Source: a virus
Strand: one strand, 5' to 3'
Virus record (IMG/VR): IMGVR_UViG_3300042780_000007
Length of the DNA stretch: 56,503 nucleotides
Part shown: positions 22,884 to 40,254 of the stretch, one piece after another
Position numbering within the stretch: the first letter of the stretch is position 1
Layout of the letters: each line of letters opens with the position of its first letter
Made by a program: the position numbers and the translations under genes
Notes under the pieces: model-generated
Told to the model about the DNA's origin: nothing
Seen by the model: only the letters and a program-made list of their open reading frames with translations
Database searches by the model: none

Positions 22884-23320
22884 TGTATCAACTCTGAAGT
22901 CTCATAGATGTTGCCAACAATGGTTAAATATTCTGTCTTCAGTTCTTCATCCTCTTGGTCGTATATTGGAATCCATTCTCTACCAGTAGGATGTATTAAT
23001 TCAGGGTATATTGGATATATTCCTGCACATCCATATCTCCATTCAACTATATATAAAAATGGTTTTATACTACCATTAACTTTTATGTGTCCTTCCCTAT
23101 CACCATATATTTTTTCAACAATATCCCCTTCGTAAATCTCCGTGCCATTCTTATCATAAAGTCCTGTAAACGGCATTAATGTCATTTTATGCAGCATTCG
23201 TTCTTGAACACAATGTGTATCATCACGTAGATAAACTGTATCTGTATGCCATTCAATTCCCACAACTGTCCACATCCCTTTCTCAATTGTATCCCATGCT
23301 CTAAACTTAATTTCTCTCAA
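22880..23320 (-). CDS. YopX-family protein
   Basis: REIKFRAWD...MPFTGLYDKNGTEIYEGDIV...IVGNIYE. Confidence 0.9.
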   Translation of the reverse strand: MREIKFRAWDTIEKGMWTVVGIEWHTDTVYLRDDTHCVQERMLHKMTLMPFTGLYDKNGTEIYEGDIVEKIYGDREGHIKVNGSIKPFLYIVEWRYGCAGIYPIYPELIHPTGREWIPIYDQEDEELKTEYLTIVGNIYETSELIQ

Positions 23321-23709
23321 ATCATCACCCCATAAGTTATATCAATCTCTTTTATATCATAAATTTTTATAAGTGTAGCATCATTAATATAATATTGTTC
23401 TTCAATCTGTTCTCGAAATATTGATGCAGCCTCGTGCATATTTGGGGCAACAATTGTCTTATCGAATTCTTCTGATATTACATTATACATCTTCAATTTG
23501 CGCCCTTTATGAGTAGCATCAGTATCTTTTGTTTTCTCATCTTTCTGCCTCTCAAGATATTTATCATACACATCATTACTCATACGACATACTTTCACAT
23601 CCCAGTCCATTGACTAAACCATATACCCATACTCTTTTACAAGATTCTGGATAAAATTATGTATCTTGCTGTCAATTTCTTTTGATTCATTTACTTTAAT
23701 ATTGCTCAT
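23317..23709 (-). CDS. Hypothetical protein with an in-frame TAG at codon 32 (130 aa if read through)
   Basis: GAGTGA RBS and ATG 23709; 31 codons, TAG at 23614-23616, then TCA ATG in frame with track ORF 23317-23610. Confidence 0.55.
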
Positions 23710-23713
23710 TCAA

Positions 23714-24070
23714 TCACTCTTCCCTGTATAGGACGATGGTTGTCATCTTGTCATGTACATATGAAAGTACTTTGCTAATCCCCATTACCGTTGTAACGAA
23801 AATCACGGCGAGTCCTGTCGAAAGAGGAAGGGCTTCAGTAATTGTTCTTTTTGGGATGTTATTTGTGGCAAATATCCACCATATAGAATATATTACTGAA
23901 TATATGACGAATATAAGCACTAAAGAAAAGGCGATCCCTCTCAAAATACTCCACGGAGTGATGAAAATATCTCTATCAGGTTCTAATCCAGTATATATTC
24001 TATAAGAATATAACATCTCTTCTCCGAATATTGCTAACAATATGTTTTTAACTTTATCTGCAATTTTCAT
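23714..24070 (-). CDS. Membrane protein with two transmembrane helices
   Basis: Two long hydrophobic stretches. Confidence 0.65.
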   Translation of the reverse strand: MKIADKVKNILLAIFGEEMLYSYRIYTGLEPDRDIFITPWSILRGIAFSLVLIFVIYSVIYSIWWIFATNNIPKRTITEALPLSTGLAVIFVTTVMGISKVLSYVHDKMTTIVLYREE

Positions 24071-24513
24071 TCAATCAACTCTGGATTTTCGTAGATGTTT
24101 CCAATTATTTCTACTTCGCCTCGTGAAATATATCCACCTGCACAGGAATCTAATGTGACAAAATCACCGTTGCCTACTTCTACTGCCCACCTGCCACATT
24201 CCCATACAACATGTCGGATACACCACTGTTTATCATTACCGTTCAATGCTATTTTCACAACATCCCCTTCGTAAATCTCCTTGCCGTTTTTATCACGAAG
24301 TCCGGTGAATTGTCCAATTGTTTCAGGTTTGACTACATGTTTTACAGTACCAACAGCCAATGACTTTGTATCGTCATTATCAATAATCCATGTGTTATGG
24401 GGATCTTGTAGAACTCCTGAACCGTGCACCATTTTGGATTCAAATTTATGCCGCCCAAAATTTTTCGGCGGTTTTGTCATCGCTCTGAATTTAATTTCTC
24501 TCATTTTTTCCAA
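24067..24513 (-). CDS. YopX-family protein
   Basis: REIKFRA...GQFTGLRDKNGKEIYEGDVV...IIGNIYENPEL. Confidence 0.9.
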   Translation of the reverse strand: MEKMREIKFRAMTKPPKNFGRHKFESKMVHGSGVLQDPHNTWIIDNDDTKSLAVGTVKHVVKPETIGQFTGLRDKNGKEIYEGDVVKIALNGNDKQWCIRHVVWECGRWAVEVGNGDFVTLDSCAGGYISRGEVEIIGNIYENPELIE

Positions 24514-24802
24514 TCTCCTTCCATGTTTCCAGTGTAAGTTCTACAGAATCCCAGTTTGAAACCGCACGATCATCTATATAAATAGTTGCCCTGGGTTTGT
24601 CAAGCAGAATTTCGTCGTATGGAATATCATGTGCAATAAGAAATCCTATTATCTCGTTGTACCTCTCCACATTATTGGCAGTCCATATAGTTATATGCCA
24701 GCCTTCTTCACGGAGTTTCTGCATCATGGATTTAGAACGTGGGATTAACTCCCACGTATCTTCATCGCAGATTATTCCGTCAAAATCTACAACCGCTCTC
24801 AT
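24491..24802 (-). CDS. Cap-less HAD-superfamily phosphatase
   Basis: VDFDG (motif I), IWTA (II), KP (III), YIDDRA (IV). Confidence 0.85.
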   Translation of the reverse strand: MRAVVDFDGIICDEDTWELIPRSKSMMQKLREEGWHITIWTANNVERYNEIIGFLIAHDIPYDEILLDKPRATIYIDDRAVSNWDSVELTLETWKEIGKNERN

Positions 24803-24808
24803 GTTCCC

Positions 24809-25186
24809 TCATACCTTAATGTTATAATCTTCAAAATCCAGTTTTTCCTTGGACATAATTTCAAGTACAACATCCTCGGTTTCCGTATCAAAATCCCGAA
24901 TATCAGGATCGATTTCACCCATGTCACAACCAATGCGCCTGTGCCGATCTATGTCAGCCAATCCGGCTTCTTTTTTGAGTGCAAATATTTTGCCTTCAAT
25001 TGGTTGCTTTTTGACTTTCAGGTCTTCAATTTGCTGGTTGATTTCATCTCTCTGTTCATAAAGGTCAGCGTTATTCTCTTTGAATTCTTGTAATTTGGAT
25101 TTTACAAGTTCGCATCTTTTTTGTTCCCTACGCTGTCTGTACAACCTTTTTATGGATTCTCGCTGGTATTTGGGTGTTTTTGCCAT
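24809..25186 (-). CDS. Coiled-coil hypothetical protein
   Basis: GGAAGC upstream; charged helical pattern. Confidence 0.65.
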   Translation of the reverse strand: MAKTPKYQRESIKRLYRQRREQKRCELVKSKLQEFKENNADLYEQRDEINQQIEDLKVKKQPIEGKIFALKKEAGLADIDRHRRIGCDMGEIDPDIRDFDTETEDVVLEIMSKEKLDFEDYNIKV

Positions 25187-25187
25187 A

Positions 25188-25487
25188 TTATTGCTTCCTT
25201 ATTGGTTCGAAATCTTTGAAAATTTTGAATATTCCATCTTCTGATAAACGTACTTCGGTGTGTCTGGATTCAGTTTCAGATATAAATAAGGTAATTCCTT
25301 TCTTATCAACATGCAAGAATGGATACCTCTGCTTATTCTCTATCTCTGCCCTCATCACATTCAAACAGTTCTTACAGGTTACTTCATCGGGTTCCTCATT
25401 GATGAGGGCTTTCTCATTTAAATGAGCTCCGCACAATGCAGCACCATTCCTATTCATGTGTACCTTACGTACATGATTGCTAGTCAT
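25188..25487 (-). CDS. Hypothetical protein with a His/Cys metal site
   Basis: VH...ALCG...VTCKNC. Confidence 0.65.
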   Translation of the reverse strand: MTSNHVRKVHMNRNGAALCGAHLNEKALINEEPDEVTCKNCLNVMRAEIENKQRYPFLHVDKKGITLFISETESRHTEVRLSEDGIFKIFKDFEPIRKQ

Positions 25488-25489
25488 AT

Positions 25490-25750
25490 TTAATCTTCCT
25501 TCTCCAATGGTTCAAACGTTTTTCTGCCAATGGTTACCTTCTCCTTGGTTTCTTCTGCAAAGAAATTGAGCACTTTGGCAAGGAAAACTACCTGTTTCTT
25601 TTCAATAGCAGTTTCCCATTTAATATAATCATTTTCCGTCATACCAATAAGTATTTTACCACTATCATCTTCCTTTACAAGAATACTGCGATCTCCATGT
25701 CCGGAAGATACCATTACCTTGTTCCTATATTCATCTGGATTCATTTTCAT
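25490..25750 (-). CDS. Hypothetical protein
   Basis: 86 aa, tightly packed in the operon. Confidence 0.6.
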   Translation of the reverse strand: MKMNPDEYRNKVMVSSGHGDRSILVKEDDSGKILIGMTENDYIKWETAIEKKQVVFLAKVLNFFAEETKEKVTIGRKTFEPLEKED

Positions 25751-25899
25751 TTTCTTTTCTCCGGTTCTTCAAATTCAGTCTTACATTGCCTACATCTATA
25801 CTTGGGTTGTTTACGTACCCTTATGCGGAAATCGGCAGACTTACAGTTTGGGCAGGCAAGTCCGGAACTGTAAAGTTTGCCCTTTCTGAATTTTATCAT
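25747..25899 (-). CDS. Zn-ribbon protein, 50 aa (not in the ORF track)
   Basis: CPNC...YRCRQC; ATGA overlaps at both ends. Confidence 0.7.
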   Translation of the reverse strand: MIKFRKGKLYSSGLACPNCKSADFRIRVRKQPKYRCRQCKTEFEEPEKRK

Positions 25900-28244
25900 G
25901 TTAAGAAATCCGCCAATGATCGCTGTCCTATCAATCCATTAATATCCCAGCCCATGGAGGAATACAAAAATTCCAGCTTTTTCATTGTAGCATCTCTCAT
26001 TGCTTTATAATCTACAACTACTCCATCGGGTAGTGATGTATCCTCATCCACGGCAATGTAATTGGCTGGTGGATATTTGGAAGCTACCTTCTTGACCTTC
26101 ACATAAAAGGGTTTGGTGCCTTCCTTGAAGTTCGTATTCAGGTTCTCATTTGACCACATGGCTGCAACCGCACGGTAGTAAGATTCCGGATAGGCGTGCA
26201 AGGGCTTCTTGATTTCTGCCGGAACTCCAATCTCGGTTAATGGATATTGCCCTTTTTCTACCTTCTTCAATTCAGTAGAGTATTTCAAGTCCAATTCCCT
26301 CTTGGGCTTATAATTCAGAAGGTCAAGGATTAGCTCCTTCTGCAGGTTCCGTGCCAGAGGGGAAGAATCTGAACGAATAGCATCAAAACCCTTCACTTCT
26401 AGCGCAGAAGGATCATCCTCATCAAAGGTGGTACCGTCAATCCACCAAAGTTTGATGGCGTATCTGGTCTTGCCTGAAAAAATGCCGTTGCGTGCGACCT
26501 TTTCAAAGTCAATGTTCATTTTTGCATGTTCATATGGTATGTTATATTGGCGTAGATGGAGAGGGAATTTACTATTCAGGTGTTCCTTGACTTCATTGCC
26601 GACTTCAATCAACTTCTTGAGACTATTGTATTTGGTTACGAAACCTACCGAATCCGTGTGCCCGAATACCCACTGATATCCAAGTTTGTTGACCTCATGT
26701 CCGCAGAAGTCAATTACACCACGGGTAATGTGTGTTACAGCATTAGCAATCCTTACATCATAAAACTTACAATGCTTGTCGGCTACATCACCATATACCG
26801 TGTTAATTGCTACCTTGTATGCTTCACGGATTGCATTGGCAACCTTCCATTCTTTGGATTTGTACTTTTCTTTATCTCGCTTCTTGCCCCACTCGTCTTT
26901 CTTTTGAAAGATATCTTCAAGGAACGTCACGTATGCTCCCTTACGCACGTGGTGTGGCATGAAGCACGTACCCCCGATATCGATACAATCGTCAAGGGAC
27001 ACGCCTTCTGGGAGATTGGAGCCATCTTCATTTACCAATGTTTCTACAGACATATTACCGGACATCATGGAGAAGGGATAGGCAGAGGTCAAATCCTCAA
27101 ATATAACATTCTCATGAAGTCCTACAACTGGTGGTCGGGGTTCGGCACCTTTTACCTTGCCATGCTCGGAATCGTGGGATGGGTATATGAACTGTGGCAT
27201 TGCCCTACTCATGGCGGTTTCTACCATCTTGCCCGAATACAGGGTGTCTTCCAGATTGCAGCCAAAAATCCTATGGAAGGTAACATGAGAACTCAAGATT
27301 GAAAGTTCCCTGTCAAGGAGCATCATCTTGTCCACATCATGATAATTATACTCCAATACTTCATCCGGATTCCTTGCCCATGCACGAGCAAGATATGCTG
27401 CATTCAATCCATCATATTTGGCAAGTCCAAGTTCCCTTTCCAGAATATCATTCAGGGAATTTTTAATATATTTGCGCCTCTTCAGTCTCAAATATCCAGC
27501 TCTGTAATCAAAGAGTGCTACTCCTTTAATCTTGGCTTTGGGATTCCCATTAAAGTCCACGTTCACACTTACCGACTTCATTGGACTTATTGGGCTAATG
27601 TCAATATTCAAAGTGTTACACCGTCTGATTATGTAAACAATATCATAACCTAACAGGTTAAACCCTGCAATGACATCCGGACCGAATTTAGCAATATACT
27701 TTATCCAAGCATTCAACATCTCGGTCTCTGTGGGATACCAGTATTCAATCCTGCCTGCAGTATTGAACTTCTGGGCTTCCTTGATTGATGAGTGAAAGCA
27801 GAACTGCACGACCTTGCTGGAATGATTGAACTGGAAACCGATTATAATTATAGGCTCCGGTGCATCCATCATATACTTATTCGTGATGGGGGTATTATTG
27901 GAAGCTACCTCAATATCCAGTCCACAGACCAGAGGATCAGCTTTTTCTTCAAATCCTTCCTCTATTCTATCAATCCAGTATCGTGTGGTAAAGGGAGTCT
28001 TGGCTTCGTAGTGTCTGTCACCACGCAATTTGCCAATATCCTGTGCCATCTTACATTCGACTTTCTTGACTTTCACGCCATCCTTGGCAGTATAAACATC
28101 TCCCTCTTTGCATCCTTGCGGAGTAGGAACATCTACCGGAAGATAGAAGTAGGGGTGGAAATCCCACACTTCGTAGGACTTGCCTCCCCACGGAAATACT
28201 ACAATTCCCGATCTATCGTTCTTGACAACCTGCTCGATCTGCAT
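25896..28244 (-). CDS. polB: Family B DNA polymerase with 3'-5' exonuclease
   Basis: DIEV, GFNLLGYD, YNYHD exonuclease motifs; DLTSAYP, KVAINTVYG, FGHTDS, KTRY, VKGFDAIRSD. Confidence 0.95.
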   Translation of the reverse strand: MQIEQVVKNDRSGIVVFPWGGKSYEVWDFHPYFYLPVDVPTPQGCKEGDVYTAKDGVKVKKVECKMAQDIGKLRGDRHYEAKTPFTTRYWIDRIEEGFEEKADPLVCGLDIEVASNNTPITNKYMMDAPEPIIIIGFQFNHSSKVVQFCFHSSIKEAQKFNTAGRIEYWYPTETEMLNAWIKYIAKFGPDVIAGFNLLGYDIVYIIRRCNTLNIDISPISPMKSVSVNVDFNGNPKAKIKGVALFDYRAGYLRLKRRKYIKNSLNDILERELGLAKYDGLNAAYLARAWARNPDEVLEYNYHDVDKMMLLDRELSILSSHVTFHRIFGCNLEDTLYSGKMVETAMSRAMPQFIYPSHDSEHGKVKGAEPRPPVVGLHENVIFEDLTSAYPFSMMSGNMSVETLVNEDGSNLPEGVSLDDCIDIGGTCFMPHHVRKGAYVTFLEDIFQKKDEWGKKRDKEKYKSKEWKVANAIREAYKVAINTVYGDVADKHCKFYDVRIANAVTHITRGVIDFCGHEVNKLGYQWVFGHTDSVGFVTKYNSLKKLIEVGNEVKEHLNSKFPLHLRQYNIPYEHAKMNIDFEKVARNGIFSGKTRYAIKLWWIDGTTFDEDDPSALEVKGFDAIRSDSSPLARNLQKELILDLLNYKPKRELDLKYSTELKKVEKGQYPLTEIGVPAEIKKPLHAYPESYYRAVAAMWSNENLNTNFKEGTKPFYVKVKKVASKYPPANYIAVDEDTSLPDGVVVDYKAMRDATMKKLEFLYSSMGWDINGLIGQRSLADFLT

Positions 28245-28253
28245 TTTATTTCC

Positions 28254-28418
28254 TCACGCACTTGTAGTATATCCCTGATATGGATATTCTACATTTACAA
28301 TGGCAACACTGGCTTCAATGCCATCTTCCTCAAGGGCTTTTTTCAACAATTCCCTGATGTATGCTGGTGCGGTGTTTTCCTCGCCACCTTCTTCTATCCG
28401 TAGATCGAAGTACATCAT
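28254..28418 (-). CDS. Small acidic protein
   Basis: Start moved to ATG 28418 after AGGTGA. Confidence 0.55.
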   Translation of the reverse strand: MMYFDLRIEEGGEENTAPAYIRELLKKALEEDGIEASVAIVNVEYPYQGYTTSA

Positions 28419-28419
28419 A

Positions 28420-29310
28420 TCACCTTTTGAGGACTTCATTCACTTTGTCTCTCACAAAGGAATCCATCATCTGGAAGTCTGGCATTTCCAGTGTATCATA
28501 ACAATGCTTACCCAGCATCTTCTCGAAGGTTGCATAATGCACCTTCTTGCCATCTACCATGTCGGAGTGGAGTTTCACGATATTCTGGGTATCAAATGCC
28601 AGATTCTTTTCTGATCTAATTTCCCTTGCTTTGGCATTGGAATCTGTATCATTTCTCCTTGCAGAATAAATGATATTGATTCCCTTGGAACGCAGAGCAT
28701 TGAGCTGGAGTACCAGATTCTTGTGCTTTTGCTTGATATCCGACCATTCAATGTTACCATCTTGTGCAAGTTCAGTTATGGTCTTACCAGCCATCTGTGC
28801 CTGCTGTCTCTTACCTTCATATTGAATTTCATCCCAAAAATCGGACATTGATTCAACAGCAACAATAGAACCTTCAGGTACTTCTCCCTCTTCTACCAGA
28901 TCGCAAAGTTGGGTTACGAACTTGTTGGTCTGGTCGAGGGTAACTTCTATATCCATTACGCTCTTGTATTCTCCATCTTCCATTACCCTTTTCATCACTA
29001 CAGGCTCGACCACATTGATATCATACTTCGTGTCCGGAAATTCTAGAAGGCTTGTATCCTGTGCTCGAAATTCTGTATCGATAATGAATACCGGAGCTAT
29101 ATTGGCTGCCGAACAGATAGTATAAGTCTTGCCATCTCCGGTATCACCATACAGAATCCAGTTCATTCCTTTGAAGATTGTCCTCTTGGTGAAGAATTTC
29201 TTCAAGGAATCCAGCCCCTTCTTGGAAGGAGCCTTGGGTGGATTTTTCTGTGCTTTCTTCTTGGATGTCTTGTCTTCGGATAGTGTGTCCCAATCTGCAG
29301 CTGTTGCCAT
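28420..29310 (-). CDS. P-loop ATPase, AAA_24/Sak4-like annealase
   Basis: ILYGDTGDGKT, FIIDTE, VAVESMSD; adjacent to an SSB-like gene. Confidence 0.7.
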   Translation of the reverse strand: MATAADWDTLSEDKTSKKKAQKNPPKAPSKKGLDSLKKFFTKRTIFKGMNWILYGDTGDGKTYTICSAANIAPVFIIDTEFRAQDTSLLEFPDTKYDINVVEPVVMKRVMEDGEYKSVMDIEVTLDQTNKFVTQLCDLVEEGEVPEGSIVAVESMSDFWDEIQYEGKRQQAQMAGKTITELAQDGNIEWSDIKQKHKNLVLQLNALRSKGINIIYSARRNDTDSNAKAREIRSEKNLAFDTQNIVKLHSDMVDGKKVHYATFEKMLGKHCYDTLEMPDFQMMDSFVRDKVNEVLKR

Positions 29311-29311
29311 C

Positions 29312-30547
29312 TTACATCACCGCTACGTATTTTGCGTTGTCGTTGAGTTCGATTTCACCATTCATTACTAATTCTTTCAGGGCATCTTTTACGGATTCAG
29401 TGTCGTATCCATTGCTGACTGCCTGTTTGACTGCTTCTTCACTGGAAATACCATCTTCTCCAGCGTACATTACGACTTTTACCATCAGGGAAGGTGTGGC
29501 AGTCTTGGTCTCCTGATCATCACCAATGTCGGCAACTTCTTCCTTGTCGTTGGATGCAATTTCTTCATCATCGGGCTGGTTATAATCGATTGCCTGATCA
29601 AAATCTTCCACATCTTCGGGGTTGTACTTGAATTCAGGTATTGCCCAGATTCCCATTGCGGTCATGGTTGGTCCATAATCTCCTTTGCCCTTCTTGGCAG
29701 AGGCAAATACTATGATTCTGGACATCTCACCAAAGTCAATTGGTGTGGATTCCGGTACAAAAACATTCTGTCCGTATTCGGTCTCATTGTCCAGTTTAAT
29801 TGTACGGGAGCCACCTGCATTAAGTTCCATGTCCACGGAAATTACATCGGCTTCCGTTATCAGGACATCTTTCTTGCCATGTGTTTCCACCCATTCGGGC
29901 AGTTTCTCAATCTCGATTTTGAGGTCTTTGAGATTCTTGTCCACGTATTCGTCAACCCTGATTTCGTCCCCATCAAGGATTTGCATCTTGGTGGACTTGG
30001 TACCATTCCAGACTCCATTCTTGCCAAGTTTACCATTGAGCCGGATTTGAGTAAACATTGGAATTTCCATATTCTTGGCTTGGTCTCCCTTGAGAATGAA
30101 AGTCGTAGGCTTCTTCTCCTGCAGGTCAACACCCCAGAGAATACGCATCCAATTTGGTTTCATTGGTTTACCAAAGTTACGATTTTCCATCGTTTTGTTG
30201 TAATCAAGAAATTTGTCCCTATCCAGTGGAGTTCCGGATTCGTCGGTATAACCTTCTGCAATAGCCTTCTGGGGGTTGGACTGGAACAATTTTATTGCGT
30301 CTTCCCTTGCGTTTGCACTGGAGTCAAATGCATCTTTCTGTCCGAAGACTAACATATCCAGGTTTTCGGTGGGAGCACCAATGGACTGTTTTTTGAATCC
30401 CAGCTGGAGCAGCCTCATTGCTCTTTTTTCGGCAGTTGGTTTTTCAAATCCCTTGCCGAGTTCGGTCTCAAGGTATTCATTGAATTTTGTCTGCGCTTCA
30501 TCTACACTTACGGAATATTGCTTTGCTAGTTCTTCTACGGTTGTCAT
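29312..30547 (-). CDS. Putative RPA-like ssDNA-binding protein
   Basis: OB-fold-like beta segments, acidic linker, wHTH-like end; next to the Sak4-like and Hjc genes. Confidence 0.55.
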   Translation of the reverse strand: MTTVEELAKQYSVSVDEAQTKFNEYLETELGKGFEKPTAEKRAMRLLQLGFKKQSIGAPTENLDMLVFGQKDAFDSSANAREDAIKLFQSNPQKAIAEGYTDESGTPLDRDKFLDYNKTMENRNFGKPMKPNWMRILWGVDLQEKKPTTFILKGDQAKNMEIPMFTQIRLNGKLGKNGVWNGTKSTKMQILDGDEIRVDEYVDKNLKDLKIEIEKLPEWVETHGKKDVLITEADVISVDMELNAGGSRTIKLDNETEYGQNVFVPESTPIDFGEMSRIIVFASAKKGKGDYGPTMTAMGIWAIPEFKYNPEDVEDFDQAIDYNQPDDEEIASNDKEEVADIGDDQETKTATPSLMVKVVMYAGEDGISSEEAVKQAVSNGYDTESVKDALKELVMNGEIELNDNAKYVAVM

Positions 30548-30590
30548 TTAATCACCTAAGTCACGTCGAGCCACGTGCTGTGACAGAAGG

Positions 30591-30983
30591 TTATCGGCTG
30601 TCACCCACGCTGCTTATATTGTTGGTCTCTTCATCCAGCAAACCGTCATCTTCACGGATAACCGGATAAAGCATTTGCATTACCTGCATAGGTAAGATTG
30701 TCCACACATTGCCTGTGGTATCGCCTTTGAATTGAAAGGCAAGCATCGGAATTTTGTCTTCACGCTTGGCTTCATAGATCATCTCATCAAGCCATTCCTT
30801 CTTAATCGTTATCTGTTTACCACCCTTGGAATCTTTTATGCCGGAGTATTTGACTTCGATATAAAGTTCGTCATGTAAGGTGTCAGAGGCGGTGTGCCTT
30901 GATGAGGAGCCAGAGAGGGGAGTTCTGAATGTACCAAATGTCTTGGCAATCCTACGCTCCAATTTTTTCCATGCTTTACTCAC
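30591..30983 (-). CDS. hjc: Archaeal-type Holliday junction resolvase
   Basis: WKKLERRIAK...PLSG...SD...YIEVK...EAK...PMLAF. Confidence 0.8.
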   Translation of the reverse strand: MSKAWKKLERRIAKTFGTFRTPLSGSSSRHTASDTLHDELYIEVKYSGIKDSKGGKQITIKKEWLDEMIYEAKREDKIPMLAFQFKGDTTGNVWTILPMQVMQMLYPVIREDDGLLDEETNNISSVGDSR

Positions 30984-31599
30984 TTAATGCCTCCTTCTCC
31001 TGGAGGAATCTGGCTTCCGGAGATTCCGGGCATTTTTCAGCGATCTGCTGATAAAGTTCCTTAATCTTTCTCTCCTGAAACTCGGTACGACATTCTTCGG
31101 GTACCTTTTCATAAGTGGATAGCATATTCCTTAAGACATCCGGACTTTCCACCATCTCATTAAAGGTCATGTCCTGTACCTGCTGGTACTGCATCTTGTT
31201 GTATTCAATGAGGGCTGTCTTGAGTTCATCTATGCGTCTGCGGTTCTGCTCTATCCGGTCTCCCTTGGTGTGCCTGTTTTCATTCAGGAGCTTAAGCCAC
31301 TCCTTCACGAAATCTATAGGCTCGCTGTTCTTCCGGATGTCATTGCTAACATGCTCCAGCAGGTCACGTAAAATGCTTGGACCAAGGATAAGGAATGCCT
31401 GTGATCCTCTACTCTTTATTCTGCCTCCACCAATTTCGTCTCTCAATTCATGGGCTTTGGCTTTGTTATCTGCCCTAATCCATGCAGAGGGAACTGGACT
31501 TGCCCTGCCTACATTAGAGGATTTGAACTTTGCATTATCAATAAGCTTCCTCCATTTGAGCATGAGCCGACCATCATCAAGTCTATCTTTTACTGTCAT
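30976..31599 (-). CDS. Hypothetical protein with a possible degenerate LAGLIDADG-like domain
   Basis: WIRADNKAKAHELRDEIGGGRI...LRDLLEHV pattern; no intact LAGLIDADG helix seen. Confidence 0.5.
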   Translation of the reverse strand: MTVKDRLDDGRLMLKWRKLIDNAKFKSSNVGRASPVPSAWIRADNKAKAHELRDEIGGGRIKSRGSQAFLILGPSILRDLLEHVSNDIRKNSEPIDFVKEWLKLLNENRHTKGDRIEQNRRRIDELKTALIEYNKMQYQQVQDMTFNEMVESPDVLRNMLSTYEKVPEECRTEFQERKIKELYQQIAEKCPESPEARFLQEKEALSE

Positions 31600-32258
31600 T
31601 TACCATACACTTCCTTCATGAACCCTTTACGGGCATCGCCCATTTTAAGTTGGACTAAATCCTGTTCGGTTCGTATATACTTTCTTGCTTTAATGTTTTC
31701 ACCCATCTTGTCAAAAATTCTCTGTTCGAATTCATTTTTCATATCGGTCATAGTTTGAGGCGGTTTGGTTCTCGCCTGTCTGTGTTCATAATAAACTACG
31801 CACCTTATATGAAACTCATTAAGAAGCTCTCTCAATTCAGTCAGGAAGGTATAAAGACTGATGTGCCTCTTCTTACAGAGTTCAGCCTCAACTTTTGTGG
31901 CGTAGGCAACATACCAGTTGCCATAACCTTTGACATCGAACTGGAAAGTCCTATGAAAATCATCTACTTGTGTAAGGATTGAAATATATTTGGAGAGAGT
32001 ACGCATTGAAATACTCCCTCCATAATTGTTCTCTGCCTTACTTATTATGCCGTACTCTTCCCGTAAAGCATCCGGAATATCACTCGTACATATTATCTTC
32101 TTGTTGAGGAGAAGATCATATAGTGCAGCCAGTGTTTCATAGTCCAGATGCCTTTTACGTTTAAAACTTTCAATCCGGTCAAGTTCTTCTTCAAGGTCAA
32201 TGGTCATCCTAATGACCAATGGATTCTCTTTCTTCTCGTTCATTGGTCTTAAAGACAT
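31596..32258 (-). CDS. Hypothetical protein, possible wHTH
   Basis: GAGGTG RBS; ISMRTLSKYISIL. Confidence 0.6.
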   Translation of the reverse strand: MSLRPMNEKKENPLVIRMTIDLEEELDRIESFKRKRHLDYETLAALYDLLLNKKIICTSDIPDALREEYGIISKAENNYGGSISMRTLSKYISILTQVDDFHRTFQFDVKGYGNWYVAYATKVEAELCKKRHISLYTFLTELRELLNEFHIRCVVYYEHRQARTKPPQTMTDMKNEFEQRIFDKMGENIKARKYIRTEQDLVQLKMGDARKGFMKEVYGK

Positions 32259-32267
32259 CTTTGCACC

Positions 32268-33317
32268 TCATTCTATCTTTACCTTGATATTCTTTTTAAT
32301 GTTTTCGTCCTCCACTTCGACGAATTTATCTTGCAACTGTTCCTTCTCCTGAATGTCCAGCATATCCGATGCTATGTGTTCCAGTGTGTCCTTTACTCCA
32401 TGGCTTGCATCATGAGAGGACACGGAAGTTATGGCGTTTATAATACCCCACAGGTTGTCGGCATGAGCCCCGTGCATCCTGTCGTTTATGCGCTTCTTGA
32501 CTTCCGTGGCTATTTTGCCAGACATCTTTTTCTCCAAGACGTAGTGATCTATCAAGTTGTTGGCTTCCTCTTTGGTAACAAGGATACTCTTTGCCCTGTC
32601 AATGCTTTCCAGTACGTTCCAAGCATTGTCTAATATTTCGCCTACCTTGATAGTAAACTCTTCCAAGAGTTCCTCTTTATTACCCAGATGAGTCTCTGTG
32701 ATGGATTCTTCTGTCTTGTAGGATACCATACCATTTTCGCATTCCAGTCTCTCAAAATAAAGGGAAACTGTTATGCTTCGTGTACCATATTCATTGTTCT
32801 TGATCTGCAATCCGGTAGAGATTATATCCCCGACCTCACCATCCGAAACATTGTCTTTGATAACGTATCGGGTAACATCATAACCTCTGGGATAGGTTGT
32901 CTTGTACCTCATGGAATCTACTTGAGTTACACCTTCCTGAATCATTATCTCTTCGGCATAGTGTTCCAGTTCTTCCATGTCGATAGGTACATAACTACTA
33001 CCAACAACAGACATGATATCTCCGGTATCCTTCAATCTCCTGAAGATAAGAGGATTATTGTCCTTCCTCATGTGCAGCATCTCAAGGAATTTGGCATTAG
33101 TATTTGGGCAAGCACCATCCTCTTCCATTTCCTTGTCAAAGATTGACTTATACGCTCCGGTCATTCTAAAAAGTTTGGTCACTGCAAATCCTTTGAGTTC
33201 AAGTGGTCCGTGTACAGTATCCAAAAGCATGTGGTTGTCTCCCACATACTTGGCATCTTCAATCTCGCTTCCCTTAATTTCTATATTTTCCCATTTAGTC
33301 TCCGGTGGATAATCCAT
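32268..33317 (-). CDS. DUF932-like protein
   Basis: SVVGSSYVPI...GLQIKNNEYGTRS...FERLECENGMV...LWGIINAIT. Confidence 0.75.
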   Translation of the reverse strand: MDYPPETKWENIEIKGSEIEDAKYVGDNHMLLDTVHGPLELKGFAVTKLFRMTGAYKSIFDKEMEEDGACPNTNAKFLEMLHMRKDNNPLIFRRLKDTGDIMSVVGSSYVPIDMEELEHYAEEIMIQEGVTQVDSMRYKTTYPRGYDVTRYVIKDNVSDGEVGDIISTGLQIKNNEYGTRSITVSLYFERLECENGMVSYKTEESITETHLGNKEELLEEFTIKVGEILDNAWNVLESIDRAKSILVTKEEANNLIDHYVLEKKMSGKIATEVKKRINDRMHGAHADNLWGIINAITSVSSHDASHGVKDTLEHIASDMLDIQEKEQLQDKFVEVEDENIKKNIKVKIE

Positions 33318-33322
33318 TGCTC

Positions 33323-33547
33323 TTACTCCTGTGGTTCTTCTTCGTAGCCTATTCCTAAGAAATACTTCATCATTGCTATAGCCAAGCCCAGAAAGCTAAA
33401 TAATATAACAATGAGTCCAATCACAAAGATCGGTGTAACTCCAATCCCTGCACCTATTATGCAAAGCACGACACCAAGCAAAAACATTGCCCAGCCCTGT
33501 ACCCACATTATTCTGGGGTCTGTTGACCTAAAGTTCGTGTAATCCAT
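33323..33547 (-). CDS. Small membrane protein with two transmembrane helices
   Basis: Almost entirely hydrophobic core. Confidence 0.7.
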   Translation of the reverse strand: MDYTNFRSTDPRIMWVQGWAMFLLGVVLCIIGAGIGVTPIFVIGLIVILFSFLGLAIAMMKYFLGIGYEEEPQE

Positions 33548-33548
33548 T

Positions 33549-34052
33549 TCATACCTCCGTTATTACTCTGTTACAGGCAGGACAAAGCACCACCGATGTT
33601 TCACCTTGTAGGGTAAACACCACGCACCTTACTTGAAGGAACTTTGGTATATTACCACAAAAGTGACATCTGTGGAAATCCTGTCTGAGCGGTTCTCGGA
33701 ATCTAAGGACACTAAGGGAATTGAAAGGTATCCCTACGGTTCCCTTATCATTCCTCACCACGGCAGGTATGGGTTTACTGGCTTCCCTGAAACGGTATAC
33801 CCCACGTTTGGAATCTGCATACTCGATCAGGTGGGCTTCCAAGGATTGCTCAACCAAAGCCTTACATTTTCTTCTAGTCTTATGGTAATCCTCACCAGAT
33901 TGCCTGCTGAAGAAGGTTGCCATCCTTGTCAAATTCCATCTGCGTGTTCCCATAACCAGCTTGAAATGCTTCAACATTTCGCTGCTGGTTAACGAAGATG
34001 AGGAGTAGTCCTCATCCACGTTTTTGTCCTCTCCATCACACATCAACATCAC
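33549..34052 (-). CDS. Putative wHTH plus Zn-finger protein
   Basis: C-terminal CHFC...CPAC. Confidence 0.55.
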   Translation of the reverse strand: MMLMCDGEDKNVDEDYSSSSLTSSEMLKHFKLVMGTRRWNLTRMATFFSRQSGEDYHKTRRKCKALVEQSLEAHLIEYADSKRGVYRFREASKPIPAVVRNDKGTVGIPFNSLSVLRFREPLRQDFHRCHFCGNIPKFLQVRCVVFTLQGETSVVLCPACNRVITEV

Positions 34053-34618
34053 TTATCGTCGCTACCCCTATACTTTAACTCTGCACCAAGTTCCCATAAT
34101 TCCTTGATGAGGGGGTGAGCATTGGTGCGTGTGCCAGTGTACCAGAGTTGATCTCCTTGATACTCCGGTTCCTTGCCCAATGCAAGTACAGATTTCAGGA
34201 AGACAGCTTCAATACATACCTTGTCTCCGGATTCATCAACACCTTCCCACCCAGCACCATTCCATGCTGTGGCTCCTGTTTTCTTGATGATTTTCTTTAT
34301 TTTGTTCTTGCTGTCGTGGTAGGTTCCTTCAGGGAGGAGGAAACCAATGGTAACCTCTTCCTCCCCTTCCTCCATAAGCGATTCGTACAACTGCTTTTCT
34401 TCTGCTGTCCTTTCAAACATATTCTCTTCCTCTTCTAGATTTTCCCATCTTATAGGAGCAGACAACCTGCCCCTTGCATGCCAATAATCATACTCTTCCT
34501 TTTCAAATGTCCGGTGACTCCCACATTTCGGGCAGTGGTACTGAAGGCGTTTAACCTCAATATACATGCCTTCCCAGCCACAGCCCACACAAATCACTGG
34601 TGTCTTACTGTTCGCCAT
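34049..34618 (-). CDS. Zn-ribbon-containing hypothetical protein
   Basis: CVGCG...CPKCGS. Confidence 0.65.
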   Translation of the reverse strand: MANSKTPVICVGCGWEGMYIEVKRLQYHCPKCGSHRTFEKEEYDYWHARGRLSAPIRWENLEEEENMFERTAEEKQLYESLMEEGEEEVTIGFLLPEGTYHDSKNKIKKIIKKTGATAWNGAGWEGVDESGDKVCIEAVFLKSVLALGKEPEYQGDQLWYTGTRTNAHPLIKELWELGAELKYRGSDDK

Positions 34619-34841
34619 CCATGTCTAGCCTCCTATTTTTATATGCTAGGACTGCCTGTTGAAGCACTTTGGAACTTTGAACGCATACTTCTGCACCAGC
34701 AGTCATAGCATCTATGTCTTCATTCTCCAGTTCCCGTTCAATGATATTGCAAAGTTGCCTAACTCTGGTAAGGTCTGCAATAACATTGCTTCTGCTTGCC
34801 GATACTGCCAATTCTCTCATTATCTTTTCTTGTTTGCTCAT
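34605..34841 (-). CDS. Helical hypothetical protein
   Basis: Start moved to ATG 34841 (ATGA overlap). Confidence 0.6.
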   Translation of the reverse strand: MSKQEKIMRELAVSASRSNVIADLTRVRQLCNIIERELENEDIDAMTAGAEVCVQSSKVLQQAVLAYKNRRLDMDGEQ

Positions 34842-35059
34842 ACAAATTCTCCCTGTTCCATCATTATTGTTTCCAGTAGTCCTTCTGAATCTATCGTAAA
34901 TTCCAGTCCACAGTCCGGACAGTAGAGCACGGATTCCATGCCCTCGTAAATCTCTGCCGGATCGTGGTTGAAGTATTGAACCTCTGCCATGCATTTTGGA
35001 CAGTACACCGGATATTCAATGTTTATTCTCTTACCGATTATTGCGTAGTCTGTTCCCAT
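34838..35059 (-). CDS. Zn-ribbon protein
   Basis: CPKC...CPDCG. Confidence 0.7.
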   Translation of the reverse strand: MGTDYAIIGKRINIEYPVYCPKCMAEVQYFNHDPAEIYEGMESVLYCPDCGLEFTIDSEGLLETIMMEQGEFV

Positions 35060-35060
35060 C

Positions 35061-35303
35061 TTATTCCTCCCTTAATGATTTAGCCATATCCTTTGAGGCT
35101 TCCTTTATATTATTGTCCTCAATTTCCTTTCTCAAGATATCAAGTTCCCTTCTTCTACCATTAAATGATCTGCGTACAAGTTCTCTGGTTTCTGGATAAA
35201 CTGATTCTATTGCTTTATTCTGTTCTCTATTGAGTGTTTTTATTCGAAAATCGATATAAGCAAGTACATCTTTTTTCTCCAGTAGTTGATCAAGTATTCC
35301 CAT
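35061..35303 (-). CDS. Hypothetical protein
   Basis: GGAGG RBS; 80 aa. Confidence 0.65.
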   Translation of the reverse strand: MGILDQLLEKKDVLAYIDFRIKTLNREQNKAIESVYPETRELVRRSFNGRRRELDILRKEIEDNNIKEASKDMAKSLREE

Positions 35304-35304
35304 C

Positions 35305-35610
35305 TTATTCCTCCTTGAGGTGGTATCCTCTCTTGTTTATTTCATCTTCCAGTTCGGAGATGTCTGCATCATCAAGGGCTTCTTGCAGGTCTTCGTAGCA
35401 GTTTATACTATCTCTCTGCACTACTTCATACAGGATTTCGTCATCATCTGCATCCAGTAAGGCATCCACACGGGCATAATAAACCTCGTCCTCGGTCATC
35501 TCTATTACTTCCCGTGCCTCTTCTCCATCAAGAGTGTCCTTAATTATCTCAAGTCCGTATTCGTCAATTGCCATTCTGATTACTTGCTTTGCAAAATCCT
35601 TTTCATACAT
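35305..35610 (-). CDS. Very acidic hypothetical protein
   Basis: GAGGT RBS; D/E-rich. Confidence 0.65.
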   Translation of the reverse strand: MYEKDFAKQVIRMAIDEYGLEIIKDTLDGEEAREVIEMTEDEVYYARVDALLDADDDEILYEVVQRDSINCYEDLQEALDDADISELEDEINKRGYHLKEE

Positions 35611-35658
35611 TATTCATACCTCGTGTCTTTGGTCTGCCTGTCCTAATAATCCTTGTCC

Positions 35659-35961
35659 TTATAAATCATTGCGCTTTGCCACTAGTTTATAATAACTGTT
35701 GTTCCTATCAATGTATTCCTTATTAAATGAAATACACCAACCCCTTTCTAAAAAAAGAAAGAAAAAATAAATTAGCATCTTTTTTATATTTTTTCTTTTC
35801 TTTTTTGTATTTGGTACTATTGCTATTATCTCATTATCTCCTGTTTCTACAATACTGAAACCTTTCTTTTGTAGTTTATCTTTCAAGTCCTCTGTAGTTC
35901 TGGTTCCCAAGGACAAGGGTTTCTGGCACCCTCGTCGTTCGGGCTGAAGGTTTGGGATCAA
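35659..35961 (-). CDS. Basic hypothetical protein
   Basis: TTG start after GGAGG. Confidence 0.55.
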   Translation of the reverse strand: MIPNLQPERRGCQKPLSLGTRTTEDLKDKLQKKGFSIVETGDNEIIAIVPNTKKKRKNIKKMLIYFFFLFLERGWCISFNKEYIDRNNSYYKLVAKRNDL

Positions 35962-36206
35962 TCATCTGCCTCCACGATGTCCACCATGAACATTGTTATT
36001 CTACGTGCCTCTTCCAATTTGTCGGTTTCCCTCTTGAATTCATTGACCTTCTAACCGATTGCCTTGTCTAGTTCCACGATAAATTCACGGGTGCTGTTTG
36101 TCCTCCGTGCTGTCTGTTCAATCAGCCAAGGCATGTGCTGGGATTGTGCTGTGGCTTCTCCAAGTACGGTATAGACCGATTCAAGATTAATGTTTGCTTT
36201 TGCCAT
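35958..36206 (-). CDS. Hypothetical protein with an in-frame TAG at codon 52 (82 aa if read through)
   Basis: AGGTGA RBS and ATG 36206; TAG at 36051-36053; read-through ends at TGA 35958, overlapping the next TTG start. Confidence 0.65.
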
Positions 36207-36210
36207 GATA

Positions 36211-37722
36211 TCACCTGTTGTTGAATGCTTCAAGTACCTCGTTCTTTGATCTTATAAACAAATTGTTCCAGTCGTTCCATTGTCTCCCCATCAAGCGCAA
36301 GACAAGTCCTTCCCTGCTGGCAAAGAGTTCATTGTGTTCGGAATACCAGCAGTGAGTATATTCATGGGCAGCCAGCATAAAAATTTCGATTCCGGTGGCT
36401 ATTTTGCCCTTTGTACTCTCCACGGCATTTGGATTGATAAGAAAAACTCTCTTGCTATCCTTCCTGAAGACTTTAGCGTTGCATTCTTTGTCAAAAGTAA
36501 ATCCAACACCGATTTCTACGTTCTGGTTGAATTCTTCTTCTATCTTGAGGATTATATTTGTCCAGTAGTGTAGGATGGTTTGAAGCTTCTTGGAATCTAT
36601 CTTCATCGGATAGTTCTTGGTGTCTTCCCTTCTTTCCACCATGAACTCGTATCCCATTGGTCCAATTTCATGCTTGCTTCCTTCCAGCATGTCACTAACC
36701 AGCTGTCCAAGTTCCGGAAAGGTGTCGGATACTTGTTCTTCCACGGCTTTATAGTTAGTTATTCCGCTTGTGGTGTTCTGTGCTGTGATGGCTTCAATAA
36801 AGTCCTTCTTATGGTCTGTTACCTCCGGATGATGAAACTCATTCAGTTTGTCCATCACATTCAGTCCGGCAAAGGTGTCAATTACCATCTGCGGTTTCTT
36901 CTCCGTGGCTGATCTGGGATCAACGATCATCTCGTTTATCTTTTCATCCAGTTTAGACCTGAATGGATAGACAAGATTATCCCTGTTGGCAGCAAGGAAA
37001 TTGACGGACTCGCCCTTGAGTTCCACATAAACCGTGGACTCCAAGTTCGGCATCATTCTCCAGAACATGGGAATGCCACGGAGCCTCACGACCATTTTGC
37101 TACTCTCAAAATTCTTGTCCACTATGAAATCCGCAAGCTCACTGCTCTTGAGAGTACCTTTGACCTTCTCGCATTTGACCTCTTCTCCATCAAGGCAAAT
37201 TGTTGCCTCTGTGGAAAGGAAAGATAAAAAGTGTTCAACTTTGTATTTCCAGAAGCCAGCGTCATAAATAGAGCCTTCTTCGTACAAATTGATTGATATC
37301 TCGGTGCCAGTCTTGCATTCAGTCTCAATGCACCTAATTGGTTCCTTGCCAATCATTTCGTTGTTTATCTCATACAACGTCGTTCCGTCTTGAGAAGATT
37401 TAATCGACCATAGACTCCATGCAAAGAAAAGGATTTCCTTTGCCTTGCCGAATCCGCCAACGGAACCTTCCTTCTTCTGGGAACCACCAAGCACAAGTAA
37501 CTTGTCACGAATAATGTTTGCATTCATTCCGCAGCCATCATCCACGACAGTTATCGTGTTGGCTTCCTTATCAATATCAATGCTTACCTAACTGGCTCCA
37601 GCATCCAGACTGTTCTGAATCGCTTCACGAATCCAGACCGTTGGTAGATCGTTTGAATAATCTGCTCTGGCATTCCTGCGGAAATAATCGGCACCTATAA
37701 CAATATTTGCTACTTCTTCCAT
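36211..37722 (-). CDS. GHKL (Hsp90/MORC/rIIA-like) ATPase with C-terminal HExxH motif and an in-frame TAG at codon 45
   Basis: GGAGG RBS and ATG 37722; REAIQNSLDAGAS*VSIDID...VVDDGCGM...GGFGKAK...GTEI; C-terminal HEYTH...H. Confidence 0.85.
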
Positions 37723-37741
37723 TATAAACCTCCTTTAAATC

Positions 37742-37764
37742 CCAAAAGAAGACATCTCTTTTGG
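37742..37764. other. Intergenic stem-loop (8 bp stem)
   Basis: CCAAAAGA-N7-TCTTTTGG just upstream of the GHKL gene RBS. Confidence 0.5.
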
Positions 37765-37860
37765 TCTGCTTGTCGCATCCTTATGCTGTGTCCAGTCCAT
37801 GCTCTCGATGTCAAGGGAGTCGCTCTCTTTGGCTCCCTTGGCTATCTCCGGCTGGCTGTC

Positions 37861-38538
37861 TTACTCTTCTGGTGGATAGTCGTACTCGAACCTATCCATG
37901 GATTCTGCAACTGCCTCGTCAAATTTATCGTTGTTGGCATTCTTGCGGAGTTTGGGGAAGGCTACAGTAATTATCGCTGTTTTGACTTTGCCAAAGTCTT
38001 CTCCAAATTTGGACTCTCCCATGAAGACTGGTGCGATTCCCTTGATAAAGATGTCTTCAAGGTAGTTGGTCACCTGTTCCAGTTTGTCTTCTGGAAATTC
38101 TGCTTCCTCAAGGTATTCCCTGACCTCCGTGTCAAGGTCTGCGAAAGAATCCTTGTCCTCGGATTCTTCCAGTTCTTCTGCCTTGGGTTCCCTTTTCAGT
38201 TCCTTGGTTTCCTTCTCTGCCTTAACTGCCGTGGTCTGTGTTTCCACCCTTGCCACCGTAGGCTCACTGAAAGGAGTTGGGAACACATCGTGGAGTTTGA
38301 CTGGCTCTCCATTTTCATCAAGATAATGCTTCTCCTCTGATCTGATATGTCTGCGAATGTTCTGTGTGGAGCACCCGAAATGCTTGGCAATGAGTCTGTA
38401 ACCCCATGCCTTGGGTTCTTCCATCTTGTTCTCTTTTCTGTCGTAGTAGTTGAGTTCATGCCTGCCAACATAAAGGTCAACTACTTCCTTGTGGTTGATA
38501 CCGATATGTCCAGATTTTGTGGTCTGCTCGTTTGTCAT
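37861..38538 (-). CDS. HTH-domain protein with acidic C-terminus
   Basis: WGYRLIAKHFGCSTQNIRRHI. Confidence 0.8.
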   Translation of the reverse strand: MTNEQTTKSGHIGINHKEVVDLYVGRHELNYYDRKENKMEEPKAWGYRLIAKHFGCSTQNIRRHIRSEEKHYLDENGEPVKLHDVFPTPFSEPTVARVETQTTAVKAEKETKELKREPKAEELEESEDKDSFADLDTEVREYLEEAEFPEDKLEQVTNYLEDIFIKGIAPVFMGESKFGEDFGKVKTAIITVAFPKLRKNANNDKFDEAVAESMDRFEYDYPPEE

Positions 38539-38568
38539 ACTCGTTCCTCCAATTCACTAAAGAATCAC

Positions 38569-38742
38569 TTAGAAACTCACCTGAATTTCTACTTCATCCG
38601 GAACCTTGTCCTCAAAGGCAGTCTTCCTGATGTAAAGTTGCCCGATGATCTCATCTTCACCCTTCACGGGCACTTCAGAGAATCTCACGGTATTCTTGGT
38701 TTCCTTGTTCTGTACGAAAGTCCTTGTGGTAGTATTTCCCAT
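38569..38742 (-). CDS. Hypothetical protein, 57 aa (not in the ORF track)
   Basis: AGGTGAG RBS; MGNTTTRTFVQNKETKNTVRFSEVP...IGQLYIRK. Confidence 0.7.
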   Translation of the reverse strand: MGNTTTRTFVQNKETKNTVRFSEVPVKGEDEIIGQLYIRKTAFEDKVPDEVEIQVSF

Positions 38743-38780
38743 TTTCTCTCACCTTTGCGTTTATTCAGACGTTTATCTGT

Positions 38781-38831
38781 CCTGACTGATACCAGTCAGG
38801 ATTCCAGTAAACGGAGGGAGGAATCTCCCTC
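38781..38831. promoter_or_regulatory. Two adjacent perfect hairpins
   Basis: CCTGACTG-ATAC-CAGTCAGG (38781-38800) and GAGGGAG-GAAT-CTCCCTC (38814-38831). Confidence 0.5.
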
Positions 38832-39018
38832 ACAAATACGATATCGGAATCGTTGAACCGCATCCATAAACATTCTTACTTGCTAACTAATCCTCCATGC
38901 ATTCCTTACATGAATCGCAATCAACTCCGATATGCCCTTCAGGTGCCCCACAATCCTTACAAGCGTAGCACTTCCGCACTGCATAACATTGCAATTTATA
39001 AGGGCAAGGTTTATGCAA
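38830..39018 (-). CDS. Cys-rich small protein with an in-frame TAG at codon 44 (43 aa if stopped, 62 aa if read through)
   Basis: GGAGTGA RBS and TTG start; CPY...C...CYACKDC...CDSCKEC; TAG at 38887-38889; next stop TGA at 38830. Confidence 0.55.
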
Positions 39019-39875: not shown

Positions 39876-40024
39876 TATGCATCCTCCATTATAATCTCGA
39901 CTACGGTTTCACCAACATCGCCTGCTGGATCATTCTCATCACGGGTGAACACACGAATTTGTTTCACGCCTACAAGGGAATCCTTGTTCAGGTTAAATTC
40001 ATCATGCTTGTCGCTGAAAGTCAC
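39875..40024 (-). CDS. Small hypothetical protein, start uncertain
   Basis: Open frame ending in a TAATG overlap with 39875. GTG at 40024; the frame stays open to about 40087, with ATC 40069 downstream of AGGAG. Confidence 0.45.
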   Translation of the reverse strand: MTFSDKHDEFNLNKDSLVGVKQIRVFTRDENDPAGDVGETVVEIIMEDA

Positions 40025-40111
40025 GTGCTTGGTGACTTGCCTAACTGTAAATTGACGTTTCTCTCCGATAGTTTCACGCTCCTGTTGTTAATTTCACGGT
40101 TGCTTCACGCT

Positions 40112-40189
40112 TCACTTCACGCCTGCGATTTCACGCAATCGTGAAGGACGTCCGAATGCGCAACCACACGCATCCGGATTCCGTCCCAT
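40112..40189 (-). CDS. Micro-ORF, 25 aa
   Basis: Preceded by GAGGACAAGGATTC; MGRNPDACGCAFGRPSRLREIAGVK. Confidence 0.3.
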   Translation of the reverse strand: MGRNPDACGCAFGRPSRLREIAGVK

Positions 40190-40254
40190 GAATCCTTGTC
40201 CTCGTGAATGAATGGGGTCAGATCAAACTGCCCCACCATTCGACTCATTCTGAG

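Follow-up and report, generated by a model that had tools for sequence, protein, structure and literature searches.

A complete viral genome, IMG/VR record IMGVR_UViG_3300042780_000007, appears to be written for a host in which the codon TAG does not stop translation. The record was analysed over its full length of 56,503 bases, and this whole stretch is what we call the window. We are highly confident that TAG is not used as a terminator in the window and is read as sense. The full explanation, an archaeal tailed virus whose UAG codons are decoded by the host, pyrrolysine (Pyl) included, is one that we consider probable, at roughly 70%. A lytic-type tailed virus (Caudoviricetes) would infect an archaeon whose translation takes UAG as an amino acid. 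The virus would be adapted to the code of its host, with UGA or UAA terminating all of its genes, and would tolerate a few UAGs where the residue is not critical: at codon 45 of a GHKL ATPase gene, at codon 32 of a second gene (site 1), and probably at codon 52 of an ORFan gene. The likely decoder would be the host's Pyl-tRNA(CUA) and the likely residue pyrrolysine.

The first line of evidence is the way in which genes end. The original prediction had stated that about 80 well-supported genes all end in TAA or TGA, and our count bears this out: of about 85 terminators, none is TAG. A mechanical call of non-overlapping open reading frames (ORFs) of at least 50 aa gave 47 TGA, 40 TAA and 2 TAG terminators. 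One of the two TAG-ending ORFs (15829–16128, plus strand) lies antisense within the gene at 14902–16293 (minus strand), and the second is the site at 36051 discussed below. In a hand-curated set of 87 genes led by a Shine-Dalgarno (SD) sequence, TGA or TAA terminates every gene, given read-through at four TAG sites. As a trinucleotide, TAG shows no depletion in the window. The two off-frames of the coding strand contain 453 TAG, 890 TAA and 1258 TGA triplets, which corresponds to a TAG share of 17.4%. Given this share, the probability of finding no TAG in 85 terminators is P = 9e-8. If all four sites are counted as stops, the probability of at most 4 TAGs in 89 terminators is P = 2.5e-4.

The four in-frame TAGs, all on the minus strand, were found exactly where they had been predicted (23614, 36051, 37588 and 38887). 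They belong to the following genes:

23317–23709, minus strand: 130-codon gene (site 1) with an SD-led ATG at 23709; the in-frame TAG (23616–23614) is codon 32
35958–36206, minus strand: 82-codon ORFan gene; the in-frame TAG (36053–36051) is codon 52
36211–37722, minus strand: GHKL (MutL/MORC-like) ATPase gene of 503 codons; the in-frame TAG (37590–37588) is codon 45
38830–39018, minus strand: small Cys-rich ORF with a TTG start and 43 codons, ending at TAG 38889–38887; read-through would add 18 codons

Read-through at these four sites leads into free space or a 4-nt overlap, and the remaining TAG-ending ORFs are antisense or N-terminal artefacts. A window-wide check found no credible extension through any TAG beyond the four, and no TAG in the window would cause a long out-of-frame overlap on read-through (Category 4). 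Calling the genes again with TAG as sense raised the coding density from 0.925 under code 11 to 0.931. As the coding density is hardly altered, TAG is a rare and not a frequent sense codon here. It had also been claimed that each TAG reads into a coherent continuation. This holds for 37588 and 23614, where homologues support it, and for 36051, where the context does, but the continuation at 38887 is unsupported.

The TAG in the GHKL gene falls within the core of the ATPase. The gene starts at ATG 37722 with AAAGGAGG upstream. The TAG is preceded by 44 codons and the motif EAIQNSLDAGAS, and is followed 16 codons downstream by DDGCGM. It thus sits between the N-box (E33, N37, D40) and the DxGxG motif (DDGCGM), which are motifs I and II of the Bergerat ATP-binding fold, and a Pfam HATPase_c_3 match covers residues 31–115. 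Aligning homologues, as had been proposed for finding the residue at each TAG, gave 21 full-length proteins of 26–45% identity, all uninterrupted over the TAG column. They have H, R, E, K, L, N, S or Q there, which in this alignment makes the column a variable polar position; a single mutation separates TAG from codons for several of these residues. When the family profile was compared with PDB, E. coli MutL residues 29–71 (motifs I–II) aligned straight over the TAG. An AlphaFold (AF2) model built from the GHKL alignment has a confident Bergerat core and places codon 45 as the first residue of a strand (45–51) that follows the N-box helix (26–40), with a predicted local distance difference test score (pLDDT) of about 90 at codon 45. 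The next possible start after the TAG is GTG 37545, which has no SD, and translation from there would yield a protein that lacks one helix, two strands and both catalytic residues, Glu and Asn. In public gene calls the gene is found as two separate products, of 44 and 444 residues. Scans of viral contigs with the GHKL protein and the large terminase (TerL) returned near-identical fragments or one marginal match only.

The same pattern is found at site 1. Here 31 codons are followed by TAG, one further codon and then a 97-codon ORF in the same frame, whose ATG (23610) has no SD. An exhaustive HMMER search gave five homologues (P0152, P0153 and P0155–P0157) of 59–86 residues and 39–59% identity. 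All five are unbroken at the TAG column, with V, L or T in that position, and conserved motifs flank it on both sides. The TAG divides a conserved domain of 58 residues. No Pfam family was found for the proteins of the sites at 23614, 36051 and 38887.

At 36051 the argument comes from context. Read-through adds 30 codons up to a TGA. This TGA and the TTG start (35961) of the next gene, which is SD-led, overlap by 4 nt (TTGA), and such a stop/start overlap is the typical arrangement of the operon around 36051. If the TAG were a stop, an unusual gap of 90 nt would be left. Scored for codon usage, the 30 codons past the TAG reach 0.52 per codon when read in frame, versus -0.65 and -0.69 off frame. 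The TAG at codon 52 of this ORFan is therefore probably tolerated as a sense codon. The possible read-through at 38887 would end at a TGA followed by two hairpins. These inverted repeats, GAGGGAG-ATTC-CTCCCTC and CCTGACTGGTATCAGTCAGG, lie at 38743–38832 (minus strand), directly 3' of the possible end, and from their sequence look like a terminator or an operator.

One could argue that the TAGs are sequencing curiosities of a single assembly. Judged from independently assembled contigs, they are not assembly errors or minority alleles, an objection that had been raised in advance. A contig from another JGI sample (L002) is 99.2% identical to the window over 10 kb and retains all three TAGs that fall within it (36051, 37588 and 38887). 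The fourth (23614) is retained in a contig from a third sample (L053), which has a mosaic neighbourhood and is 96% identical. The differences between the strains are also informative. In L053, site 1 has 16 differences, all in codons 2–33, with 10 codons changed synonymously and 3 nonsynonymously. Between the window and L002 the GHKL gene has 13 synonymous and 6 nonsynonymous codon changes, and the changes upstream of its TAG are 2 synonymous ones plus one R-to-K. That changes before the TAGs are mostly synonymous means that the upstream pieces are translated and constrained. Furthermore, the downstream GHKL fragment belongs to a protein cluster (90% identity) of 25 members, for which the 15 listed show 98.9% identity or more. 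All 12 of the near-full-length members listed (438 or 444 aa) begin just after the TAG, and no intact GHKL allele without TAG was found among 5.8 billion clusters.

The remaining features to which the argument refers are these:

1–56503, no strand: complete viral genome with about 87 genes, a 127-bp terminal repeat and TGA/TAA terminators throughout
6396–7412: tail tube
12040–13533, plus strand: tail-fibre protein with an N-terminal CBM96 domain and no TAG within
16199–18139, minus strand: anaerobic ribonucleotide reductase (NrdD)
25896–28244, minus strand: family B DNA polymerase (PolB), best matches in haloarchaeal tailed viruses
45722–47263: TerL
47248–49512, plus strand: portal protein, matches limited to Haloarcula tailed viruses and one Methanomassiliicoccales virus
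53639–55237: prohead protease/scaffold
55240–56385, plus strand: major capsid protein, HK97-fold (SU10-type), matches among 50,697 phage records to archaeal tailed viruses only

The window carries an exact terminal direct repeat of 127 bp (positions 1–127 are identical to 56377–56503) and is therefore a complete genome whose assembly is circular or terminally redundant. The same genome is present in public collections as NCBI RWII01000001.1 (56,475 bp; record GCA_003940385.1) and as a contig of 56,517 bp. Its G+C content is 40%. Besides NrdD, PolB and the GHKL ATPase, the minus-strand replication and nucleotide-metabolism arm encodes a dTMP kinase, a thymidylate-synthase-like protein, an AAA_24 ATPase and DUF932. 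A PurA/PurZ-like synthetase at 18136–19185 (minus strand) adjoins the dTMP kinase, the thymidylate-synthase-like gene and NrdD. Its scores are nearly the same for archaeal-type PurA, with 242 bits (cut-off 368), and for PurZ, with 226 bits (cut-off 300), and it has a PHROG 'PurZ' match of 2e-62. Its P-loop reads GSEGKGK; that of PurA is GDEGKGK. PurZ is the enzyme of the 2-aminoadenine (Z-base) pathway, and judging by these matches an archaeal virus with a Z-genome is possible. A non-coding stretch of 379 nt at 39876–40254 (minus strand) holds at least 6 copies of GCGTGAA(A/G), an iteron-like array that may be a replication origin or bind a regulator.

The tail-fibre protein led to two further viruses. 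One, G003 (IMG/VR 3300031987_000009, 54.6 kb), is complete with terminal repeats, and its tail-fibre module has 50% aa identity to that of the window. The other, G002 (IMG/VR 3300027365_000077, 19.6 kb), is otherwise a different virus with a G+C content of 35%, but 1.1 kb of its tail-fibre gene is identical at 99.2% of DNA positions to the 3' part of the window gene (window 12517–13620 versus L046 5838–6941). Such identity implies recent recombination, that is, an exchange of the receptor-binding module, and the two viruses very probably share a host population. The tail-fibre genes of both G002 and G003 have an in-frame TAG at codon 83. The intact protein of the window aligns over this codon, where the other two proteins of the alignment have Y or N. 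A second gene of G003 encodes an AEP primase with a PriL-like domain as its C-terminal fusion partner (G003 32976–34001, minus strand, which is L050 12976–14001) and has an in-frame TAG at codon 251. A DNA_primase_lrg match (residues 235–339) spans this TAG, at a sub-threshold score (E 0.0012, 18.7 bits versus a cut-off of 22.4 bits). Another read-through ORF of G003 overlaps at its end by 4 nt with the gene that follows. What else ends on TAG in G002 and G003 is an antisense artefact, one more short ORF that may be read through, and an ORF of 61 aa that is ambiguous; neither virus has a clear TAG terminator.

Hence, the in-frame TAGs of the two viruses fall in different genes than those of the window, including a structural and a core replication gene. 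The original prediction had the TAGs confined to early or accessory genes. Within the window this stands, as none lies in the structural arm, but it does not extend to the tail fibre of G002 and G003 or to the primase of G003. That the TAGs of the relatives lie in tail-fibre and primase genes, and always at variable positions, favours neutral drift. From this distribution, the in-frame TAGs look like neutral placement at tolerant positions rather than regulatory design.

Could the virus itself recode TAG, as crAss-like and Lak phages do? Phages that have reassigned TAG to Gln (code 15; e.g., Ivanova 2014, Borges 2022) carry their own suppressor tRNA, have many TAGs, mainly in late genes, and infect bacteria with the standard code. 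The window resembles them in that an in-frame TAG must be sense. In contrast to them, it has no tRNA-CUA: a tRNA search found no tRNA genes in the complete genome, and an Rfam scan gave no tRNA-like match. G003 has tRNA-Leu(TAA) as its only tRNA, and the other relatives have none. There are only four in-frame TAGs in total, and the coding density is as high under code 11. The TAGs of the window lie in the early and replication arm with none in the late genes, which is the opposite of what is seen in recoded phages. The hallmark genes resemble those of archaeal viruses, and the literature searched contains no recoded archaeal virus of the code-15 type. Recoding of a standard-code host by the virus is hence extremely unlikely, and TAG-to-Gln reassignment, which the original prediction named as its alternative, fits poorly.

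Several observations weigh against TAG as a host-decoded sense codon. The read-through at 36051 is without homologue support, as no homologues of the ORFan protein were found, and its basis is context. The site at 38887 is without support: its codon-usage score is about -0.07 on both sides of the TAG, and it has no family match, which speaks neither for read-through nor against it. The strains that we compared differ by only 1–4%, and on population data alone it is possible that a nonsense mutation occurred recently and has since been fixed. The nearest syntenic relative, a scaffold from a South China Sea cold seep (L005, ENA ERZ23498485 scaffold_113), has TerL, GHKL, DUF932, AAA_24 and PolB in the same order as the window and a GHKL protein that is 40% identical, and it terminates 4 of its 42 genes with TAG, GHKL and AAA_24 among them. 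Doing without TAG as a stop is hence no trait of the whole lineage; it probably follows the host. A distant relative (L001) was located to Ace Lake. Finally, a profile scan of genome contigs with the GHKL alignment matched only distant relatives in bacterial metagenome-assembled genomes, at no more than about 30% identity across most of the protein.

Alternatively, translation may really end at the TAGs. In that case, GHKL and the site-1 gene would have been inactivated or split recently, the other two TAGs would be ordinary terminators, and TAG would be a rare stop (4/89). Four in 89 (4.5%) is not significantly below the 9.5% of the cold-seep relative (P = 0.067), and the close similarity of the available strains is compatible with a recent event. 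However, 4/89 is still far under the off-frame expectation given above. Real stops would also require two independent nonsense mutations in conserved domains, each fixed in every sampled strain. The upstream pieces are SD-led, intact and under purifying selection, whereas the downstream pieces have no start signal. The pattern is repeated in different genes of two viruses that have the tail-fibre module in common with the window, and the read-through at 36051 terminates exactly in a 4-nt gene overlap. All in all, we regard this reading as very unlikely.

If TAG is sense, the question is who decodes it. Searches against 50,697 phage and archaeal-virus records matched the capsid protein to Haloarcula tailed viruses and one Methanofastidiosa virus and no others, and the portal to Haloarcula viruses and one Methanomassiliicoccales virus only. 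The tail tube and PolB have their best matches in haloarchaeal viruses; the matches of TerL are generic. No peptidoglycan hydrolase was found among the window proteins, and sigma-70-like sites are not in excess in the window. Given that the capsid and portal matches are confined to archaeal tailed viruses, which also give the best matches for tail tube and PolB, the host is in all likelihood an archaeon. We also considered the CBM96 and Disaggr_repeat domains of the tail fibre as a marker of Methanosarcina and rejected them, since CBM96 is found in Bacillus subtilis as well and Disaggr_repeat matched below the threshold.

No ORF of the window matched a pyl-type family, and pylT, pylS and pylBCD are absent from the virus. 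Together with the tRNA and Rfam scans of the complete genome, this agrees with the claim that neither pylT nor pylS is viral and that decoding is supplied from outside. As the virus has no tRNA or pyl gene, the host must decode UAG, and for an archaeal host pyrrolysine is the only mechanism known from the literature searched. We infer that the residue is likely pyrrolysine and that the host is likely a Pyl-decoding methanogen, with Methanosarcinales and Methanomassiliicoccales as candidates. The G+C content of 40% and the affinities to viruses of Halobacteriota lead us to lean towards Methanosarcinales.

An alternative is that UAG is sense but the residue is not pyrrolysine. In this case the host would have an amber suppressor tRNA-CUA charged with a standard amino acid, or near-cognate tRNAs would read through UAG in a leaky fashion. 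The TAG columns are variable (H/R/E/K/L/N/S/Q in GHKL, V/L/T at site 1, Y/N in the tail fibre), so that any residue would be tolerable, and the data single out no particular one. On the other hand, an archaeal reassignment of UAG to anything other than pyrrolysine is not described in the literature searched, the lack of TAG terminators implies efficient and constitutive decoding, contrary to leaky read-through, and the affinity to archaeal viruses is compatible with lineages that use pyrrolysine. We therefore consider a different residue unlikely.

What is known of pyrrolysine in Methanosarcina acetivorans bears on how a virus could use it. Pyl decoding there proceeds without a PYLIS-type cis signal, so that any UAG in a foreign or viral mRNA is readable (PMC12626013), and both the charging of Pyl-tRNA and the pausing of ribosomes at UAG follow methylamine demand (PMC13663744). 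By analogy with M. acetivorans, a link to methylamine metabolism is plausible. One could go further and speculate that the viral proteins hold pyrrolysine and that the early programme is tied to the methylotrophic state of the host, with UAG as a sensor of that state. The full-length GHKL ATPase and the site-1 protein would then be made efficiently only when Pyl-tRNA is abundant, that is, during growth on methylamines. We consider such a sensor unlikely.

If pyrrolysine, or another residue inserted by the host, does enter viral proteins, there are a number of consequences. Stop-codon usage together with internal TAGs would be a practical signal for predicting the hosts of viruses that infect methylotrophic methanogens. 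Annotation under code 11 would truncate or split genes in such viruses, as in the case of GHKL (44 and 444 residues). The genetic code of the host would be a barrier to host switching. These viruses would also be a natural system in which to ask whether the supply of pyrrolysine limits viral gene expression.

Two metagenomic tailed archaeal viruses in GenBank, vir519 (BK063666, host Methanofastidiosa) and vir335 (BK063680, host Methanomassiliicoccales), which we take to come from the methanogen-virus compendium of Medvedeva et al. 2023, have capsid or portal proteins of 25–28% identity to those of the window. In vir335 TAG ends 0 of 52 genes, counted over annotated coding sequences only, as greedy ORF calls at 58% G+C are dominated by spurious antisense ORFs. 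The relationship is remote, however, and the G+C content of 58% in vir335 differs from the 40% of the window. In-frame TAGs in genes of archaeal tailed viruses are not described in the literature that we searched, which did not include the main methanogen-virus compendium.

Cellular counterparts are better known. In archaea of the proposed 'Code 34', TAG occurs inside conserved genes and is never a terminator; the lineages include Methanosarcina, Methanococcoides, Methanohalophilus, Methanimicrococcus and Methanomethylophilus (Kivenson et al., bioRxiv 10.1101/2024.09.30.615893). The window shares with these and with other TAG-minimised Pyl archaea (Borrel et al. 2014, PMC4153887) that it has no TAG terminators, has Category 1 TAGs and has none of Category 4. 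Category 1 TAGs, which have homology on both sides, are those at GHKL codon 45, at site-1 codon 32, in the tail fibre of G002 and G003 and, more weakly, in the primase of G003. A further likeness is that TAG lies at variable, tolerant positions, as neutral drift predicts. The difference is that the window is a virus without pylT, pylS and pylBCD, so it would be wholly dependent on its host, and that the incorporation of pyrrolysine is inferred here. M. acetivorans (Shalvarjian et al. 2025, PMC12626013; Britt et al. 2026, PMC13663744) is similar in that no cis element is required for the decoding of UAG, but there UAG still also terminates.

Among viruses, the smacoviruses offer the comparison. 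These have single-stranded DNA genomes of 2.5 kb in which 4.25% of terminators are TAG, which served as a host clue for Methanomassiliicoccales (Diez-Villasenor and Rodriguez-Valera 2019, PMC6336856). As in the window, viral stop usage mirrors a Pyl-using archaeal host. In contrast, the window is a tailed double-stranded DNA virus of 56 kb with 0% TAG terminators and with TAG inside conserved genes, and no in-frame TAGs have been described for smacoviruses. Pyrrolysine decoding and Code 34 have been described for cells, and in the searched literature the depletion of TAG terminators in smacoviruses is the only viral counterpart. Here, a complete tailed double-stranded DNA virus and two others that trade tail-fibre modules with it appear to carry TAG as a sense codon in conserved, functionally necessary domains, without a decoder of their own.

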